From NCBI GenBank assembly GCA_964512635.1, contig CAZEJB010000007.1:27148-91147 (forward strand): a DNA stretch of 64,000 bases, in the 5' to 3' direction. Position numbers and translations under genes: made by a program. Shown one piece after another: positions 1,530 to 63,214 of this stretch (its first letter is position 1; each line of letters begins with the position of its first letter). Under the pieces are notes generated by a model. The model ran no database searches. It had not been told where the DNA came from and saw only the letters and a program-made list of their open reading frames with translations. The stretch is from an uncultured Planctomycetales bacterium. GTDB taxonomy: Bacteria; 4484-113; JAFGCY01.

Positions 1530-2573
1530 CTATGAATCAGTACTGCTGGAATTAAGCCCCTCCCACATCGTCATCAGCTGGCGGGTCTCGGCCACGTCAT
1601 GCACGCGGTGCAGCATCACGCCCTGGTCCAGCAGGTGCCAGGTCGCACCCAGGCTGGCCGGCAGGCGCTGCTCCGGCTGCGCTGCCGCCTCAGGCCGGCC
1701 GGACTGGCTCATCAGGGTCTTGATAAAGCTCTTGCGCGAGAGGCCGTAGAGCAGCGGCGGTGCGCAGACATGGGGGACCGAATTTTCTTGTAGGGCCGTG
1801 GGCTTGTCCCCGGCCGTGTCTTCGGTAGGGCCGCAAGGATGTGCGGCCGTCCCAGCTTTGCCTGGGTCCAATAGGGCCGCACATCCGTGCGGCGCTACAA
1901 GATACCTGAGCCGCTCCGCTCCCTTGATCAACGCCAGGTTGTCCTCCAGGCGCTTGCCAAAGCCGATCCCCGGGTCGAGCACGACGCGTGCGGGGTCGAC
2001 GCCAAGGGCGATCAGCGCGTCGAGCTTTTCGCGCAGGAACGCTCCCACCTCGGCCACGCAGTCGTTGTACTGCGGCGACTGCTGCATATCCGCCGGCGTG
2101 CCGAGCATGTGCATCAGCACATAGCCGCAGTTGCCGCCGGCAATCACATCCCACAGGCCGGAGTCCATCCGCCCGGAGGAGATATCGTTGACGCAGTCCA
2201 CGCCAATGGCCAGGGCCTCGCGGGCCACCTGCGCATGGAAGGTGTCCACGCTGACGGCCAGACTTGTCCCGCCATCGCGCTCACGGATAAGGCTCAGCTC
2301 CACCGCCGCCTCAAGCACCGGCAGCACCCGCTGCAGCTCTTCCTCCGCGCCAACCGCCACGCTGCCCGGGCGCGTGCTCTGGCCGCCGATGTCGAGGATG
2401 TCCGCCCCCTGCTCAGCCAGCAGCGCCAAGCGCTCACGGATCAGCGCCGGCTCAGCGCCAATGCGGCTGCCGGGGTAGAAGCTCTCCGGGTCCGCGTTGA
2501 CGATCGCCATGATCCGCGGCCTGTCGAGAACGAGTACCTTTTCGCCCAGTTGCCAAATCGGGGCCGAGCTCAT
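1530..2573 (-). CDS. folP: Dihydropteroate synthase with an in-frame insertion of about 47 aa
   Basis: The 347-aa ORF reads ...RIMAIVNADPESF...DILDIGGQSTRPG...VDTFHAQVAREAL...GLSRKSF...LHRVHDV, which are typical FolP motifs. An extra segment sits between RYLV and GLSRKSF and is encoded by a palindromic REP-like stretch. Confidence 0.85.
   Translation of the reverse strand: MSSAPIWQLGEKVLVLDRPRIMAIVNADPESFYPGSRIGAEPALIRERLALLAEQGADILDIGGQSTRPGSVAVGAEEELQRVLPVLEAAVELSLIRERDGGTSLAVSVDTFHAQVAREALAIGVDCVNDISSGRMDSGLWDVIAGGNCGYVLMHMLGTPADMQQSPQYNDCVAEVGAFLREKLDALIALGVDPARVVLDPGIGFGKRLEDNLALIKGAERLRYLVAPHGCAALLDPGKAGTAAHPCGPTEDTAGDKPTALQENSVPHVCAPPLLYGLSRKSFIKTLMSQSGRPEAAAQPEQRLPASLGATWHLLDQGVMLHRVHDVAETRQLMTMWEGLNSSSTDS
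1750..1895. repeat. REP-like palindromic element embedded in-frame in folP
   Basis: Three TAGGGCCG-headed units are present, two forming a perfect inverted pair (ggccgcacatcc / ggatgtgcggcc). This is the same style as the intergenic REPs at 14045-14270 and 19198-19267. Confidence 0.5.
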
Positions 2574-8607: not shown

Positions 8608-9618
8608 CTAGGCCTGCCCCGGCTGTCCGGTTTGCGCTTCCAGGAGTCGCTCCGCGCGCTGACGCAGTTCGGGCGTCAGCAGATCGGGCCTGCGCTGATA
8701 GGTCAGCAAAAGCGCCGCATCTTCGCGGAAGCCGAGTATTTTAGCATGATTTCCGGAAAGCAATACCTCCGGCACGCGCCGGCCGTGCCAGATTTCCGGC
8801 CGGGTAAAGTGCGGCCAGTCCAGCAGGCAGGCGCCGTCCGGCCGGCTGGTGAAACTTTCACTTCCGGCGCTGTCGTCGTTGCCCAGCACGCCGGGGATCA
8901 GCCGCGTCACTGCGTCAATAAACACCATGGCGGCCAGCTCGCCGCCGGAGATTACGTAGTCACCGATGCTGACCTCGCGCGCCCCGACTTCCTCCAGCAG
9001 GCGCTGATCGATCCCTTCATAGCGGCCGCAGAGCAGGATCAGAGAGGCACAAGGGACAAGGGCCGAGGGACAAGAGTCCCGAGCACTGCGGCCTGGCTCC
9101 AGATTCTCTGTGTTTGTTGCCCAGTTTTCTCCAGTCCCTGGATACTCATCATCAGTATCTGTTTCTTTGTCTTCCAAGCTCTTAAGTCTCTCCGCCTCTT
9201 GCTTTTGGCTCATGGCCCTTGGCCCTTGGCCCTCTTCTCTCGTCCCTAGTCCCTGGTCCCTAGTCCCGTCTTCCCTTGCCCCTTGGCCCTTGACCCTTGT
9301 CGCTTGTTCGGCCAGCTCCTCCGCCAGCGCCTGCGTCAGCAGCTCGCCGGACGGGCTAAGGTAGATCACCGGCGTATCCGCACCATACAGCTCGCGCAGC
9401 GAAGCTATCGCGCGGAACAGCGGCTCGGCCAGCATCACCATGCCCGGCCCGCCGCCATAGGGCGTGTCGTCGGTGGTGCGGTGCTTGTCGCCGGTGAAGT
9501 CTCGCGGGTCGGTCAGACTAAAGCCGATCAGACCTGCGTCCACCGCCCGGCGCAGCACGCCGTGCTCAAAGACGGCTCTGACAAAGTCGGGGAAGATGCT
9601 GATGACGTGGAAGTTCAT
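8608..9618 (-). CDS. trmD: tRNA (guanine37-N1)-methyltransferase TrmD carrying a low-complexity in-frame insertion of about 85 aa
   Basis: MNFHVISIFPDFV...LLCGRYEGIDQRL...IGDYVISGGELAAMVFIDAVTRLIPGVLGN.... TrmD motifs are present. The insert (QGAREDGTRDQGLGTREEGQGPRA...DTDDEYPGTGENW...) lies between the N-domain and the LLCGRYEGID motif. Confidence 0.85.
   Translation of the reverse strand: MNFHVISIFPDFVRAVFEHGVLRRAVDAGLIGFSLTDPRDFTGDKHRTTDDTPYGGGPGMVMLAEPLFRAIASLRELYGADTPVIYLSPSGELLTQALAEELAEQATRVKGQGAREDGTRDQGLGTREEGQGPRAMSQKQEAERLKSLEDKETDTDDEYPGTGENWATNTENLEPGRSARDSCPSALVPCASLILLCGRYEGIDQRLLEEVGAREVSIGDYVISGGELAAMVFIDAVTRLIPGVLGNDDSAGSESFTSRPDGACLLDWPHFTRPEIWHGRRVPEVLLSGNHAKILGFREDAALLLTYQRRPDLLTPELRQRAERLLEAQTGQPGQA
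9040..9310. repeat. Lower-GC tandem or low-complexity repeat inside trmD (ggcccttg / tccctagtccctgg units)
   Basis: Direct reiterations are visible: ggcccttggcccttggccct, gtccctagtccctggtccctagtccc and cccttggcccttgacccttg. The encoded insert is absent from canonical TrmD. Confidence 0.5.
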
Positions 9619-14044: not shown

Positions 14045-14270
14045 TGAACGTAGGGGCGCGTGGATCGCGCCCGCGGTCGGAGCGTCGAGTCGTCGGGATG
14101 CAGGTAGGAGCGCACAGAGTGCGCCCGGCATCTGAACGCAACGCAGCAAGCACTTTTGCGCCCGGTCACTAAACTGTCAGTAACTGCCGGGCGCACTCTG
14201 TGCGCCCCTACCCCAAGTTCGGTACTGCACGGATTTCCCAACGCGGGCGCGCTCCACGCGCCCCTACGAT
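14045..14270. repeat. Cluster of nested REP-like palindromes between the convergent alkB and gmd genes
   Basis: The outer pair is gtaggggcgcgtggatcgcgccc / gggcgcgctccacgcgcccctac. The inner pair is gtaggagcgcacagagtgcgcccgg / ccgggcgcactctgtgcgcccctac. The gcgcacagagtgcgc core recurs at 19198-19267. Confidence 0.6.
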
Positions 14271-15433: not shown

Positions 15434-16085
15434 GGAGGGGCTCAGCTTGCCTGAGCCCGCGGCAAGAGTGACAGCTCGATGAAGGATTAAAGATGACCGT
15501 CACGTCTGAGCTGATATGCCTGCGGATTTTCCAGGATGTACTTTCGATAGGCAAACAGCTCTTCTTCATCTTCAATCACTTCGTCTCCATAGCTGCGCTG
15601 AAGGAACTGTCTTGGCAGTCGTTGATATTGTTCGCGAAAGGTGATGTACTCGCGAGCACTCAAGGACTTGAAGACCTGCATAAACCTAACCAGGCTTGTT
15701 CCAGCCTTCCCGGTCTGCAAGCTCAGTGCCAGTATGAAGTGCAGGTGATCCGGCATGACGCAGTGGCAATCGATCTCGGTGTCTGGAAAGCGAGTTGCTG
15801 TATGCAGCAGGTGCTTCTCCAGCATGACTCCAATGCGGGTCAGTCTTGGCTGGCCTTCTTCGATCCGGCACAACAGTGGAATTCGATCCTGAACGCACTG
15901 TGTAACCATGTACATTCCCGGCGTAGAGTAATCGAAACCCTTCGCCCGGGGATTCTTACGGCGGGGCACTTCAACCCATTCAGGTAAAGCCATCATCGAG
16001 AAAATTGTATCGCCGCGGGCTCAGGCAAGCTGAGCCCCTCCGATCCACGGAGCATCGTGCTGAAAGCGATGCAGCGAGCGGTCAG
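15434..16085 (-). mobile_element. REP-RAYT-REP unit: a REP-associated tyrosine transposase gene flanked by inverted REP copies
   Basis: The left REP at 15434-15463 (ggaggggctcagcttgcctgagcccgcggc) is the reverse complement of the core of the right REP at 16011-16085 (cgccgcgggctcaggcaagctgagcccctccgatccacggagcatcgtgctgaaagcgatgcagcgagc). A third copy lies at 57060-57130. Confidence 0.65.
15487..15996 (-). CDS. REP-associated tyrosine transposase (RAYT, IS200/IS605 TnpA-like HuH)
   Basis: 169 aa with the HuH motif (CHCVMPDHLHFIL) and a downstream conserved Tyr region (...AREYITFRE...), both typical of the Y1 transposase/RAYT fold. Single copy, flanked by REPs. Confidence 0.75.
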   Translation of the reverse strand: MMALPEWVEVPRRKNPRAKGFDYSTPGMYMVTQCVQDRIPLLCRIEEGQPRLTRIGVMLEKHLLHTATRFPDTEIDCHCVMPDHLHFILALSLQTGKAGTSLVRFMQVFKSLSAREYITFREQYQRLPRQFLQRSYGDEVIEDEEELFAYRKYILENPQAYQLRRDGHL

Positions 16086-18292: not shown

Positions 18293-18475
18293 CGGAGCGC
18301 GGACTTTAGTCCGCATCCGGATGGAGCGCGGGACTGTGTCCCGTATTCCTGGAGCGCGGGACTGTGTCCCGTTCTTCTAAGAAGCAGAACCAAACAGGGC
18401 GCGGTGAAAGCCGCGCCCTTTGCGCACTAAGTCCTTGCCAGTCTGGATCAATGAATACGGGACACAGTCCCGGGC
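18293..18475. repeat. Second REP-like family (GGAGCGCGGGACTGTGTCCCG units) between rpsD and mazG
   Basis: Three direct copies of ggagcgcgggact(t/g)t(a/g)gtcc(g/c)g lie at 18293-18372, and one inverted copy (cgggacacagtcccgg) at 18455-18472. They flank a terminator-like hairpin. Confidence 0.55.
18397..18422 (+). terminator. Intrinsic terminator-like hairpin downstream of rpsD
   Basis: gggcgcgg-tgaaag-ccgcgccc followed by ttt. Confidence 0.5.
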
Positions 18476-18479
18476 TCCA

Positions 18480-19181
18480 TCAGCCTTTCTCCGCCTGCTT
18501 GATCCTCTCCCAGTTGGCCAGCACCTCGGCGCTGTCGGCGGCCGAGGCGTCGCCGTAAACGTGGGGATGCCGGCGGATCAGCTTGCGGACTATGGCCTCC
18601 AGGCTGGCATCCACCCCGCCCCGGCCCATGGCCTGCAGGATGTCGCCCATGAAGGCGCTCTGCAGGGTCAGGTCGCCCAGCTCCTCGGTCAGCTCGCCGT
18701 AGAGCCGGTCAAGCTCGGCCTGCTGATCTGCACTCAGGCTGGCTGCGGCAGGCAGCGGCGCGCCGGATGCCGACTGCTCCGAGCCGAAGTCGGGATGATG
18801 CGGATGGTGGACGATGCTGTGGCCCTTCTTCTTCGTCCGCGCCTTCTCCTCTTCCCCGGCCGGTGGCTCGGGGTTGGCTGGCGGCTGGCCGGCCTGCTCC
18901 CGCAGCCCGGCCTCAAAGGCCAATATGTTGTCGATCGCCTCGCAGACCTCGTCGGCCTCCTCCCGGACATACTGCCGCAGGCTGGCCAGGCTCTGCTCGC
19001 GGTCCCAGGGGCAGCCGCCCGGCGCGCGCAGATCAGCCATCAGCCGCGTCAGCTCCATAAACCACTGTCCAGCCTGGGCGATTTGTCCTTCGCGCCCAGC
19101 AGTGGCGCGGTCCCAGCGGGCGCGGACGGCGGGATCTATCGGGTCGGCAAAAGGGGGCTGAGTCATCGGACAAGTATCCAC
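18480..19181 (-). CDS. mazG: MazG-family nucleoside triphosphate pyrophosphohydrolase with a low-complexity insert
   Basis: ...GGCPWDREQSLASLRQYVREEADEVCEAID... (MazG EExxE motif), then a second half with ...ELGDLTLQSAFMG.... A His/Pro-rich insert lies between them. The start may be the internal ATG at 19058. Confidence 0.7.
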   Translation of the reverse strand: MDTCPMTQPPFADPIDPAVRARWDRATAGREGQIAQAGQWFMELTRLMADLRAPGGCPWDREQSLASLRQYVREEADEVCEAIDNILAFEAGLREQAGQPPANPEPPAGEEEKARTKKKGHSIVHHPHHPDFGSEQSASGAPLPAAASLSADQQAELDRLYGELTEELGDLTLQSAFMGDILQAMGRGGVDASLEAIVRKLIRRHPHVYGDASAADSAEVLANWERIKQAEKG

Positions 19182-19197
19182 GATGCTGCCGCGATCT

Positions 19198-19267
19198 GCA
19201 GGGGCGCACAGAGTGCGCCTGGCACAGCTGCTCTATTCGGGCCGGGCGCACTCTGTGCGCCCCTGCT
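19198..19267. repeat. REP inverted pair with the gcgcacagagtgcgc core
   Basis: gcaggggcgcacagagtgcgcc ... ggcgcactctgtgcgcccctgc. Same family as the 14045-14270 cluster. Confidence 0.6.
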
Positions 19268-46324: not shown

Positions 46325-46413
46325 TGTAGGGGCGGTCTTGACCCGCCCATCCTCCTGCCACTGTGGTCGTCTGGCGGAAAGCAGCGTGGGTCGGTCAAGA
46401 CCGACCCCTACAC
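46325..46413. repeat. REP inverted pair (GTAGGGGCGGTCTTGACCCGCCC) between the convergent methyltransferase and acs genes
   Basis: gtaggggcggtcttgacccgccc ... gggtcggtcaagaccgacccctac. It shares the GTAGGGG head with the 14045-14270 REPs. Confidence 0.55.
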
Positions 46414-46417
46414 TTGC

Positions 46418-48451
<2,034 letters not shown>

Positions 48452-48522
48452 ACTCTGATTATAGGCAGGGCGCGCTCTGCTCTCGAGTCGCAAAAAATGC
48501 ATGAAGACGTGTTGGAACTGGT

Positions 48523-50209: not shown

Positions 50210-50531
50210 AAATACCTCCCTTTAAAACGACATCCTAACTCGGCCAGTATAACCACGCTCAATGCCTTGTCAATGAATGTTCCCAAAGTTTCCCACTCCA
50301 AGCAGGAATGTCATCACCTATAAGTGTTGTTGCATGTAGTGCGAGGCCCAGTTTAATGCTGTTCATAGTCTATATGCGCAACTTTGACACTGTTTACCCA
50401 CAAGGCAAATCTGTTTCGAGCGAACCGCTCGGTCTATTCATGCTCATCTTGATTCTAAGCTGACTGAGAAAGTACAGATCTTGATTCAACATTCTGACCA
50501 CTCTAGAGTCAAACGCGGACATCCACAATTG

Positions 50532-50620
50532 GCGCGAACTCGCGCTCCTCGACCAGAAGGTCGCTGATATGGGTGTCCTGCTCGCTCATGGGCTGATTAT
50601 AGGCAGCGCGGTCGTCGGCT
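50532..50620. repeat. Direct repeat copy B (degenerate duplicate of the acs 5' end and promoter)
   Basis: See 48393-48480. It encodes only a truncated remnant, [20 protein letters not shown].... Confidence 0.6.
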
Positions 50621-57038: not shown

Positions 57039-57059
57039 TACGCGACGAGCAGATTGTTT

Positions 57060-57130
57060 CGCCGCGGGCCTAGGCAAGCTAGGCCCCTCCGATCTTCGGA
57101 GCAACGTGCTCAAAGCTAGGCAGCGAGCAT
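57060..57130. repeat. REP copy of the RAYT-associated family
   Basis: cgccgcgggcctaggcaagctaggcccctccgatcttcggagcaacgtgctcaaagctaggcagcgagc is about 85% identical to 16011-16085. Confidence 0.65.
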
Positions 57131-57230
57131 TAACTCCTGACGCGGGCCGGGTCAAGACGGGCGCTCCGGAGGCTTCGTCCTGCTCTGTGGCAGTGAGCAG
57201 GCTGTCAGTTCGCCAACTACAATCCCCCGC

Positions 57231-59324: not shown

Positions 59325-59380
59325 CGCGCACTCAGCAATTGGCCGCGGTATGACGCGTGCGCACAGCTACAATCGCTGCA
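59325..59380 (+). promoter_or_regulatory. Conserved 5' sequence of cassette copy 1
   Basis: tgcgcacagctacaatcgctgcagtgcgtgcggtctacagcaaaccggg is nearly identical to 61958-62010. It contains a TACAAT -10-like hexamer 7 nt before the GTG. Confidence 0.35.
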
Positions 59381-60571
59381 GTGCGTGCGGTCTACAGCAA
59401 ACCGGGTGAAGTACTGAAGGGGTGGAACGAGGCTCTGCTTGGCCTGCGTGAGAGTCCTCTGCCTCGCTACTGGTGGGCTCAGGATCAAGCCGTCTCGGCA
59501 GCACGCCCCTGGTATGCCCGCGGGATCGGACTGTACCTGTTTGCGGCTGTGCTCAGCGCTGCGGTTTGCATAGTGATCTGGCTCCTCAATCAGCGGCTGG
59601 CGTCTTTCCCGGCCCGCAGCCTCACTGCGCATGAACTCGCCGCAGTCGAGCTTGGACTAGTCAGTGCCGCCGCCAGTGCTTCCGTCTGCCTCTATCTCAT
59701 TACGCTGTTTCTTTCCCGTTTACATCGCGCCATCTTCATCTGCCTCGGCTTTCTGGAAGCCCAGCCCAGGCGTGTGCAGCGGCGCAGCCTGGACGACCTG
59801 CTGGCAGTAGCCCGGCTTTCCGAAATGGAGTTGCTAGTTGGTCTCCTGGCTTATTGCCTTCGCAGCCTGCTGCCACCTCTGTGCGCAGTGTACTTTTCAG
59901 CGACGCTGTTCATCGTCTGCCTGCAAGCCACTGCCGGCGAGACTCGCGTGAATCCAATGCTTTTACTCTCCTACCTGCCGGTCGTACTGGCTGCCTGTCT
60001 GGGAGGAGCACTTGGGACGGCCAACAGCCTGCTGCTCAGCGTCGTACTGAGCCGCAGCTACCGTGCCAGCCTGCTGCCTCAGCTGGGCTCGGCGATGCAG
60101 ATTATGCTGCAGGCGGTCAGTATCCCGCTGCTGCTGGCCACATTCTCAGAGAGTGCTTTTCTCGGGTTGGTCTTCGATCGCTTTGGCCTTGCAGGCAGTC
60201 AGCTTGTGGTCATTGGGGAATTGTTCTTTCTGTTCCTCCTCGTCTACACGGCACGGAGAGTCACCGGACTGCGCTTCCTGCTGGGAAGCGGGCCATTGAT
60301 AGCGCTTGGACTGTTTCTTGTCTTGCCGCTGGCCTCATCCATCCTCGACGGCGATCATTCCGGTTTAGCGTCATTACTGCTGCTTGGTCTCCTTGCAGTT
60401 CAGTGTTGCTTTTGCGGCGTCAATCCGGTTTTGCCGAAGCTGTTGTCTGAAGGCAGTCATGAGGTCTTCCTCTTTACTATCAGCCTGATCCCGCAGCAGC
60501 TGGCACTGCTGCTGGTCCTGGCCGAACTGGCGCGGGATGCGGTGCTGCGTCGAAAGTGGGAGGGGACATGA
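59381..60571 (+). CDS. Polytopic membrane protein, family B copy 1
   Basis: About 10 TM helices. 45-50% identical to 61988..63214, with the same N-terminus (MRAVYSKPG.....GW..AL.GLRE.P) and C-terminus (ARDA..RRKWE). Alternative GTG start at 59357. Confidence 0.6.
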   Translation: MRAVYSKPGEVLKGWNEALLGLRESPLPRYWWAQDQAVSAARPWYARGIGLYLFAAVLSAAVCIVIWLLNQRLASFPARSLTAHELAAVELGLVSAAASASVCLYLITLFLSRLHRAIFICLGFLEAQPRRVQRRSLDDLLAVARLSEMELLVGLLAYCLRSLLPPLCAVYFSATLFIVCLQATAGETRVNPMLLLSYLPVVLAACLGGALGTANSLLLSVVLSRSYRASLLPQLGSAMQIMLQAVSIPLLLATFSESAFLGLVFDRFGLAGSQLVVIGELFFLFLLVYTARRVTGLRFLLGSGPLIALGLFLVLPLASSILDGDHSGLASLLLLGLLAVQCCFCGVNPVLPKLLSEGSHEVFLFTISLIPQQLALLLVLAELARDAVLRRKWEGT

Positions 60572-61957: not shown

Positions 61958-61987
61958 CGAAGCCTGCGCACAGCTACAATCGTTGCA
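61958..61987 (+). promoter_or_regulatory. Conserved 5' sequence of cassette copy 2
   Basis: See 59325-59380. Confidence 0.35.
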
Positions 61988-63214
61988 GTGCGTGCGGTCT
62001 ACAGCAAACCGGGACCTCTGATTCAAGGCTGGCTGGCTGCTCTCCGCGGCTTGCGCGAGAACCCAATGGCGCATTACTGGGGAGCGCAGGACAGCGCTGC
62101 TGCCGCAGCTCGGCCGTGGCTTGCTCGCGGCAACTCCCGCCTGATCGTCGCTGCTGCCTTATGTGCTGCGATCGTGTTTTTCCTGCTGCGTCTGCAGACC
62201 AGCATGCAGCTTGAGGCCTCCGGCACCCTCGCCAGGCAGCAGATCGCCCAGGCCTACAGCAGCCTTGGCGGAATGCTGATTCTGCTGGGGGCTCTGCTCA
62301 TCTGCTGGCTGTGGATGCTGCAGCGCTTCTATCTCTGTGCCCAGCTCGCGCTGGCCTTTCTGGAGCCGCAGCCTAAAAACCGCCAGCGACGGAGCCTGGA
62401 CGACCTGCTGGCCGTCTCAAGTCTTAGTGAGCAGGAACTGCTCTGCGGCCTGCTGCTGCACTGCCTGCGACGGCTGCTGCTTCCCATGCTCATCTTTACA
62501 GCCAGCTGCGCCATCTGCGTCGCCTTTGCCCGCGGGCAGGCATTTCTGCCGGACCTGATAAGGTACGACAGCGCAAGCCTGACCGATTGGTTCCTGCTTA
62601 CAGCTGTCATCCTGGGCGCACTCATCAGTGGGATTCTTGGGGCACTGAACAGCATCCTGCTGCTGCTCAGCCTTGGTCTCAGCCGCAGACCCAGCCTGCT
62701 GCCTCTCAGCGGCGCCTGCGCCCAGGCGCTGACCCAGTTCGCCGTCGGTGCGCTGATGAGCGCGGCAATACTCAGCTCCGGTCCGCTGGCCTCTGACGCC
62801 GAGCCCCTGCCGGCATTCGAGGTCTACAGCGGCGTACTGGCCGCCTTGTTCTTCACCTGGCTGCTGGGCATCCTGGCGCTCTACCTTGCACGGCGCTGGT
62901 CATGGCTGCGCTTCGTGCTTGGGCACGGCATTCTGTTCCCGCTGTTCTTCGTGATCGGCCCACTCCTGGCCTTTGAGCTTTTCGCCGGCGACGACCCTGA
63001 GGGCAGCGCGACGCTTGTCCTGGGGCAGATCGTCATGCTGATCGCCTACTCTTTGCCCTCGCCCCTGCTTTTCGCGGCCTGGCTGCAGGGTTCAGGAGTC
63101 TTCTTTCTTTCGCTGCTGCTCGTGCTGGTGCCGGTGCAGGTGCTGGGTATCCTCGTGTTGGCCGGCTTTGCCCGGGACGCGATCCAGCGCCGCAAGTGGG
63201 AGACCCAGGCATGA
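61988..63214 (+). CDS. Polytopic membrane protein, family B copy 2
   Basis: GTG start. Homologous to 59381..60571. Confidence 0.6.
   Translation: MRAVYSKPGPLIQGWLAALRGLRENPMAHYWGAQDSAAAAARPWLARGNSRLIVAAALCAAIVFFLLRLQTSMQLEASGTLARQQIAQAYSSLGGMLILLGALLICWLWMLQRFYLCAQLALAFLEPQPKNRQRRSLDDLLAVSSLSEQELLCGLLLHCLRRLLLPMLIFTASCAICVAFARGQAFLPDLIRYDSASLTDWFLLTAVILGALISGILGALNSILLLLSLGLSRRPSLLPLSGACAQALTQFAVGALMSAAILSSGPLASDAEPLPAFEVYSGVLAALFFTWLLGILALYLARRWSWLRFVLGHGILFPLFFVIGPLLAFELFAGDDPEGSATLVLGQIVMLIAYSLPSPLLFAAWLQGSGVFFLSLLLVLVPVQVLGILVLAGFARDAIQRRKWETQA

Follow-up and report, generated by a model that had tools for sequence, protein, structure and literature searches.

Can a mobile palindromic repeat enter an essential gene, be carried along as extra peptide, and persist there across deep divergence? 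The question is raised by folP, the gene for dihydropteroate synthase (DHPS), in the 64-kb stretch of DNA analysed here (the window), which comes from a metagenome-assembled genome (MAG). Repetitive extragenic palindromes (REPs) are short mobile repeats that fold into hairpins, and RAYT tyrosine transposases are believed to mobilise them. An original prediction for this window proposed that a REP-like palindromic element lies in-frame within folP and is read through as an extra loop. Our results support the core of that proposal. With a probability of roughly 0.8, we regard the insert as a GTAG-type REP cluster inside folP that is probably translated as a loop, that goes back to a single old insertion, and whose arms have been constrained as nucleotides.

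The folP gene is an unbroken open reading frame (ORF) at 1530-2573 on the minus strand and encodes a 347-residue DHPS that reads ...RLRYLVAPHGCAALLDPGKAGTAAHPCGPTEDTAGDKPTALQENSVPHVCAPPLLYGLSRKSF..., just as quoted in the prediction. Between L225 and P273, and flanked by helix alpha6 (209-226) and strand beta7 (274-276), the protein has 47 residues, whereas 64 of 68 aligned homologs have a turn of two or three residues at this site (consensus L-G-R-P-LLY). The loop of about 47 residues that had been placed at 1750-1895 was thus correct in its 47 in-frame codons, but the exact span is 1758-1898 and the net gain is 45 residues. The insert is a GTAG-headed REP cluster that consists of an inverted doublet (REPIN), a third unit and a degenerate remnant (Table 1). 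On the coding strand the order is CTT, GTAG CGCCGCAC GGAT GTGCGGCC, a 26-nt spacer and GGCCGCAC ATCC TTGCGGCC CTAC, followed by CGAAGACAC GGCCGGGG ACAAG CCCACGGCC CTAC, the 32-nt remnant and CCG CTG CTC TAC. Judged by its letters, the remnant may be a decayed REP half unit.

The perfect inverted pair that had been noted is present as the 12-nt sequences ggccgcacatcc (1875-1886) and ggatgtgcggcc (1837-1848), and it extends to 24-nt arms (1825-1848 and 1875-1898) with 92% complementarity and with their heads pointing outward. Three units headed by the 8-mer TAGGGCCG had also been proposed. The 8-mer does occur at 1791, 1826 and 1872, but the unit at 1872-1898 has the opposite orientation to the other two; the copy at 1872 is the tail side of unit 1, the true GTAG head of which lies on the minus strand at 1898-1895. 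The 8-mer alone is not significant (4 found against 2.4 expected). The 24-nt arm pattern, allowing up to three mismatches, gave 2 matches against 0.00 expected in shuffled sequences.

Table 1. Features of the folP insert and related elements, in window coordinates
Feature	Position	Strand	Support
folP (dihydropteroate synthase), intact ORF bearing the insert	1530..2573	-	Pfam, alignment, model, solved-structure matches
In-frame insert, 47 codons, residues 226-272, net +45 aa	1758..1898	-	homolog alignment, solved DHPS, pLDDT
REP unit 1 (arm A): GTAG CGCCGCAC GGAT GTGCGGCC on the coding strand; predicted translation VAPHGCAA	1875..1898	-	
Spacer between the REPIN arms, 26 nt, with a small hairpin of its own (CCCAG/CTGGG)	1849..1874	.	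folding
REP unit 2 (arm B): GTAG GGCCGCA AGGATG TGCGGCC, inverted partner of unit 1; predicted translation (T)AAHPCGPT	1825..1848	+	
REP unit 3: GTAG GGCCGTGG(G) CTTGT CCCCGGCC, CTTGT-loop subfamily, stem unlike units 1-2	1790..1815	+	
Degenerate remnant, 32 nt (…VPHVCAP), similar to a REP 3' half in decay; cf. QPCAP of L004	1758..1789	-	
Two nested GTAG REPIN pairs, intergenic, with GGGCGCG and GGGCGCAC stems; architecture of the folP element	14050..14267	.	
Intergenic REPIN: GCAG/GTAG GGGCGCAC AGA GTGCGCCC	19198..19266	.	
Intergenic GTAG REP pair with GGGCGG / GGGTCGGT stems	46326..46411	.	
RAYT-like Y1 transposase ORF, 169 aa	15487..15996	-	Pfam Y1_Tnp, NCBIfam REP_Tyr_transpos

In its structure the insert agrees well with the definition of GTAG-type REPs. 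Unpaired GTAG heads are found at 1790 (+), 1825 (+) and 1898-1895 (-), and the stems are GC-rich and 7-8 bp long with loops of 4-6 nt, as expected for short imperfect palindromes (stem 5-13 bp, loop 2-20 nt). The head-outward inverted doublet can fold as one long hairpin, which is the hallmark of a REPIN; only in its location, inside an ORF instead of extragenic, does the element depart from the definition of REPs and REPINs. Folding of the 171-nt region is better than that of shuffled sequences (z = -3.4 as RNA and -4.0 as DNA), and in both the minimum free energy and the centroid structures the arms pair into one long hairpin. Across an alignment of 11 units, 96.6% of the stem cells are paired, compared to 28-64% when the partner is slid, and three of the eight stem pairs change on both sides, including a change from G-C to C-G in both folP arms of the window. 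An intein or intron was rejected as an explanation, since PF00809 is the only domain in the protein, no Rfam family was found in the window at gathering thresholds, and 47 codons are far too short.

REPs are repeats that can mislead assemblers, and the source is a MAG; one could therefore suspect an assembly or binning artefact, with a chimeric join formed through the repeat. We consider this close to negligible. A separate Logan assembly of SRR14271334 contains an identical 1044-nt folP with the same neighbours on a 6.4-kb contig, homologous folP inserts are present in four other samples, and the frame and the downstream catalytic motifs are intact. The worry about the assembly that accompanied the prediction is thereby largely answered.

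Evidence on the history of the insert comes from relatives. Among 5.8 billion proteins, only the three nearest relatives of the window protein are also long: P0002 (344 aa), P0003 (334 aa, from MAG SJ870, GCA_020849855.1) and P0004 (320 aa), with FolP sequences 64-70% identical to that of the window. The additional residues occupy the same position in all three (GAHGCAP…GAHPCAPT and variants), and the underlying DNA reads GTAG GGGCGCAC GGAT/ATCC/GGAC GTGCGCCC, a spacer, and GGGCGCAC ATCC/AACC GTGCGCCC CTAC. All three REPINs begin at the same codon boundary as that of the window, directly after the Leu of RLxxL. All four lineages read arm A in frame 0 and arm B in frame 2 and have kept the GTAG/CTAC heads. 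It had been suggested that the insert might be strain-specific, or that it reflected a recent insertion. Neither suggestion is upheld, given that a REPIN occupies this site, in the same reading frame, in three other lineages with FolP proteins this diverged; nor have the relatives turned out to carry the insert in a non-palindromic form, which would have pointed to an ordinary loop. The next homolog, P0005 (51% identical, with the same folE-folP synteny), is without an insert, and no insert-free close relative was found among the 5.8 billion proteins.

Two histories could give rise to this distribution. According to the one we favor, a single insertion was inherited by all four lineages. According to the other, the four lineages would have obtained their REPINs independently and fairly recently, the folP spot being either a preferred REP/RAYT target or one of few permissive positions that an essential gene offers, and the high identity of the arms would reflect a conserved family consensus and not orthology. 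Several observations fit independent insertion. Similarity in the arms greatly exceeds that at flanking synonymous sites: the arms are 87-96% identical between lineages, and identity at 4-fold sites in the folP core is 52-70% between carriers against 40-50% to the outgroup, which is near saturation. L001 and L003, the two closest lineages, have identical spacers; no other spacers can be aligned, including that of the window (1849-1874) against those of the deeper orthologs. The number and order of units also vary: L003 has a duplicated 33-nt unit and a flipped arm-A loop, L001 and L003 share an extra truncated upstream unit, and the window alone has unit 3, which the three orthologous inserts lack and which was clearly added later in this one lineage. 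Finally, the REP consensus is nearly the same across genomes. Intergenic REPINs of SJ870 and of the window are near-identical (GTAGGGGCGCAC-AGA-GTGCGCCC in both; also, for example, GTAGGGGCGCAC-AGA-GTGCGCCCGGCA), and strong conservation of the REP consensus is therefore general in the clade. Orthologous intergenic REPs, sought in order to calibrate this conservation, were not found in the syntenic 10 kb of the window and L001.

Independent insertions are nevertheless unlikely in our judgement. They would have to hit the same left junction codon and place both arms in the same frames in all four lineages, and the proteins searched include no insert-free close relative. They would also have to account for a GGAT/ATCC loop common to the folP inserts. 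Neither the intergenic REPs of the window nor 29 kb of SJ870 contain this loop, and it is absent from the 174 matches listed (119 loci, other genomes) in a contig scan for this REP type with the pattern GTAGSRSCGCACN{3,4}GTGCGSCC, a generic pattern for which the window's own genome is not among the matches listed. Among the sequences compared, the loop was seen in folP inserts only, which favors common descent of the folP element over independent insertions from the dominant family of each genome.

The same scan revealed an unusually wide distribution for one REP stem sequence. In the matches listed (L007-L125), MAGs and isolates from many phyla share GTAG GGGCGCAC N3-4 GTGCGCCC (CTAC) with identical stems; among these phyla are Chloroflexota, Cyanobacteria, Bacillota, Acidobacteriota and Armatimonadota, and one Dehalococcoidia locus (L081) contains at least eight copies in 8 kb.

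If the insertion is old, what has been conserved in it? At third codon positions the arms agree in 14-16 of 17 sites, compared to 52-70% at 4-fold sites in the remainder of folP (P = 0.001-0.08 per pair), and those codon differences that do occur are mostly non-synonymous. The constraint therefore acts on the nucleotides and not on the peptide. Moreover, the arms of the window differ from the others by four concerted substitutions, and the change from G-C to C-G affects the same stem pair in both arms.

These patterns bear on two further explanations. First, the insert could be an ordinary lineage-specific functional loop that forms, for instance, an interaction surface or a Cys/His metal site, and the palindromy would be incidental. 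HxC motifs do recur (PHGCA, AHPCG and PHVCA in the window; AHGCA/AHPCA in P0003). However, P0002 has lost the motif of its first arm (AHIRA) while two copies of AHPCA are kept, and P0004 has no HxC motif at all (AHGRA, AQPCA, SQPCA); on these grounds the metal-site interpretation was rejected. A functional loop of any kind is also difficult to reconcile with conserved third positions and mostly non-synonymous differences between orthologs, with GTAG heads and stems that match the intergenic REPs of the genome, and with the low model confidence of the insert, and we regard it as highly improbable.

Secondly, the hairpin itself could be selected as a nucleic-acid element, either as a messenger RNA structure in folP translation or decay or as a DNA site that could bind RAYT, gyrase or a nucleoid protein, with the peptide as a by-product. 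Constraint at the level of nucleotides, the compensatory G-C to C-G change in both arms, the GTAG/CTAC heads kept in all lineages and the predicted stability of the long hairpin are all what such selection would produce. The pattern is equally expected from concerted evolution of the arms without any function, through templated repair or gene conversion with REP copies. In addition, the flipped arm-A loop in L003 breaks the long REPIN hairpin at its centre, and the element has no Rfam match. We therefore think it doubtful that an intragenic REPIN has been kept very long in an essential gene through selection on its hairpin instead of its peptide. If this were true, REPINs could be beneficial, vertically inherited residents even of coding sequence, and the locus would be a natural test case.

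How could an essential enzyme accommodate such an insert? The DHPS around it appears to be functional. PF00809 matches FolP with E = 4.6e-58 in two stretches split by the insert, and the alignment of solved DHPS chains covers residues 5-225 and 267/272-341 and leaves residues ~226-271 without a counterpart. All 37 invariant DHPS columns in the 68-sequence alignment are kept, including D110, N129, D200, K281, R323 and H325, and the folP core is under purifying selection (77% amino acid identity versus 52% identity at 4-fold sites, compared to L001). An AlphaFold model has eight beta/alpha units and high confidence overall (predicted local distance difference test, pLDDT, 89.6; predicted template modelling score, pTM, 0.88), and Foldseek comparisons to solved DHPS gave target-normalised TM scores of 0.87-0.94. 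The only low-confidence part of the model is the insert (pLDDT 44-58), which is located in the alpha6-beta7 loop of the TIM barrel.

The catalytic beta-to-alpha loops of a (beta/alpha)8 barrel lie on one face, and the alpha-to-beta connections lie on the other. By this topology, the insert should be on the N-terminal face, away from the pterin and p-aminobenzoate (pABA) site. A surface loop away from that site is what the prediction had put forward for checking, and the fold topology agrees with it. With the loop in this position the enzyme probably tolerates the insert, as is also suggested by the unbroken frame and by the catalytic motifs that are conserved downstream (SRK, RVHD). The tolerance that had been offered as one explanation is in this respect supported. 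The length is a multiple of three and there is no stop in the GTA-G frame, from which we infer that the insert is translated as a loop of ~45 extra residues; judging from the model, this loop is probably disordered.

FolP also has a second lineage-specific extension, of 8 aa (LIRERDGG, residues ~95-102, window ~2265-2300), in the alpha2-beta3 region. It is common to P0001-P0003 but not P0004, and its DNA is not palindromic, which identifies it as an ordinary loop extension.

Possible relatives of the folP element, and a candidate for the enzyme that could have moved it, are present in the window. GTAG-GGG-headed, head-outward hairpin pairs are found at four intergenic places, all downstream of real genes, and those at 14050-14267, 19198-19266 and 46326-46411 bear out the resemblance to intergenic REPs that had been predicted; the same architecture is seen in the relative MAG SJ870 (L121). 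The RAYT-like ORF matches Pfam Y1_Tnp with 25.1 bits (cutoff 23). On either side of it, at 15434-15458 and 16017-16041, are inverted GGAG GGGCTCAG CTTGC CTGAGCCC hairpins, and the whole is a REPtron-like unit. The CTTGT loop of unit 3 ties this unit to the CTTG(C/T)-loop subfamily around the RAYT-like gene, and unit 3 also resembles GTAG GGGCCGAG CTTGT CTCGGCCC of a relative MAG (L001, 15474-15498).

Further hairpin repeats were observed beside these. Approximately 100 nt of the RAYT flank recur at 57046-57146 with 80% identity and a compensated stem (GGGCCTAG/CTAGGCCC) but without a transposase. The region 18294-18481, between rpsD and a MazG-like gene, contains a third hairpin family, GGAGCGCGGGAC TGT GTCCCG, twice in tandem and once inverted, together with a GGAGC GCGGAC TTTA GTCCGC unit; the relative MAG (L121) has units like these.

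Taken together, we propose a single insertion of a RAYT-type REP doublet into a permissive alpha-beta loop of this essential enzyme, most likely before the members of a small clade of uncultured bacteria diverged. Local remodelling would have followed, in which units were gained, lost or loop-flipped while selection on folP kept the frame; the frame is indeed preserved in every insert variant. The arms may have stayed REP-like by a process acting on nucleotides, be it correction templated by the hairpin or a partner, conversion from copies in the genome, or selection on structure, and these three processes are indistinguishable with the present data.

However, this interpretation should be held with some caution, since a number of observations weigh against it. 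A neutral passenger predicts that the arms decay like the spacers; they have not decayed, and this is unexplained. The spacers and unit numbers of the deeper lineages are too different to prove a single origin by alignment. Low pLDDT is no proof of disorder, and both translation and enzyme activity of the insert-bearing FolP are predicted. With respect to mobility, the NCBIfam REP_Tyr_transpos match of the RAYT-like ORF (54.7 bits, E = 9.5e-15) is under the curated cutoff of 80, and the flanks of this gene are of the GGAG/CTTGC type, related to unit 3 and not to units 1-2. The exact variant with GCCGCAC stem and GGAT loop has no second copy in the 64-kb window. A metagenome scan for GGCCGCACATCCKTGCGGC gave 84 loci, none with a CTAC tail or a REPIN partner; as candidate folP-type REPs these were rejected as unrelated hairpins or terminators for that reason, and the scan is no evidence either way on the copy number of the folP subfamily. 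Multi-copy status is thus shown at the superfamily level (GTAG-GGG stem) only.

A second repeat structure is found just upstream of folP. The folE-folP spacer (2574-2791) contains a long inverted repeat with arms at 2585-2636 and 2690-2741, each arm consisting of four tandem 8-nt units, GTCGATGA GTCGATAA GTCGATGA GTCGATG, and the complement. The array of this motif has no counterpart elsewhere in the window (6 matches, with 0.11 expected), its predicted RNA fold has -83.9 kcal/mol (z = -5.0), and the 3' arm stops just ahead of the folP ribosome-binding site. The corresponding spacers of L001, L003 and L004 have GTCGA/GGTCA arrays facing TCGAC arrays and are otherwise unalignable, and in the insert-free outgroup folE and folP are just 4 nt apart. 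The leader repeat, for which no Rfam match was obtained, may be a regulatory hairpin or a protein-binding array.

Elsewhere in the window, a 55-nt direct repeat (95% identity; 59352-59406 and 61959-62013; GA.GC.TGCGCACAGCTACAATCG.TGCAGTGCGTGCGGTCTACAGCAAACCGGG) stands at the starts of two plus-strand ORFs of similar size (404 and 408 aa) and is probably a common leader or promoter of paralogous genes. An 80-nt direct repeat (91% identity; 48393-48472 and 50531-50610, ~2.1 kb apart) adjoins the starts of two minus-strand ORFs and may represent duplicated 5' ends or regulatory regions. A degenerate run of 7-nt repeats (CCCTTGG / CCCTAGT / CCCTGGT) is located at 9216-9307 within a long minus-strand ORF (8608-9618).

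How does the folP insert compare to known systems? Di Nocera, De Gregorio and Rocco (2013, BMC Genomics 14:522, PMC3733652) sorted REPs into GTAG and CGTC superfamilies, and the parts of their work drawn on here describe intragenic REP units, dimers and clusters that encode 20-82 aa and are argued to be neutral inserts in flexible loops. Their supplementary table includes a GTAG-17 dimer in the dihydropteroate synthase Oter_2350 of Opitutus terrae (aa 144-168). With intragenic GTAG REPs already catalogued, even in a DHPS, calling the element unusual, as the prediction did, overstates the case. The insert of the window is like these REPs in being a cluster of GC-rich GTAG hairpins that lies in-frame in a gene for a known protein, and folP itself is a precedent. 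It differs from the O. terrae dimer in its site (226-272, alpha6-beta7, against 144-168) and in stem, loop and phylum.

With REPINs and REP-RAYT systems, described as hairpin-forming REP doublets (Bertels and Rainey; Nunvar et al.; PMC8049555; bioRxiv 10.1101/2024.10.14.618302), the folP element shares an inverted GTAG REP pair with a variable spacer that folds as one long hairpin, and persistence that appears to be vertical; copies related at the superfamily level lie elsewhere in the genome, as does a candidate RAYT gene between inverted REPs. The difference is that REPINs are extragenic by definition and the folP element is coding. The Rickettsia palindromic elements (RPEs) RPE-1, RPE-4 and RPE-6 (Ogata et al. 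2000, as cited in PMC3733652) are the classic case of palindromic mobile repeats that enter functional genes in-frame and are expressed as additional peptide, and the folP insert would work in the same manner. The folP insert shares with them a host gene that appears still functional, as suggested by its intact ORF, its invariant DHPS residues and purifying selection. It does not belong to the RPE families. RPE-4 and RPE-6 are of the CGTC type, in contrast to the GTAG heads found here, RPE-1 is longer, and RPEs as a whole are restricted to Rickettsia; furthermore, ribosomal protein S4 of the window is at most 48% identical to that of named phyla, none of the matches being Rickettsiales.

In conclusion, the kind of element is already known, even for folP. 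What this locus adds, relative to those sections of PMC3733652, is a same-site insert retained in orthologous position in four deeply diverged lineages, with arms conserved as nucleotides and compensatory change inside coding sequence. It is a clean case of a mobile palindromic repeat absorbed into an essential and well-understood enzyme, and it shows where a TIM barrel probably tolerates ~45 extra residues, in an alpha-beta loop on the non-catalytic face. For annotation, it is a reminder that such inserts are easily mistaken for assembly errors or novel domains. The orthologous copies permit a rare comparison within one gene, in which the decay of REPIN arms can be set against that of spacers and synonymous sites, and which bears on whether REPINs persist through selection, homogenisation or chance.

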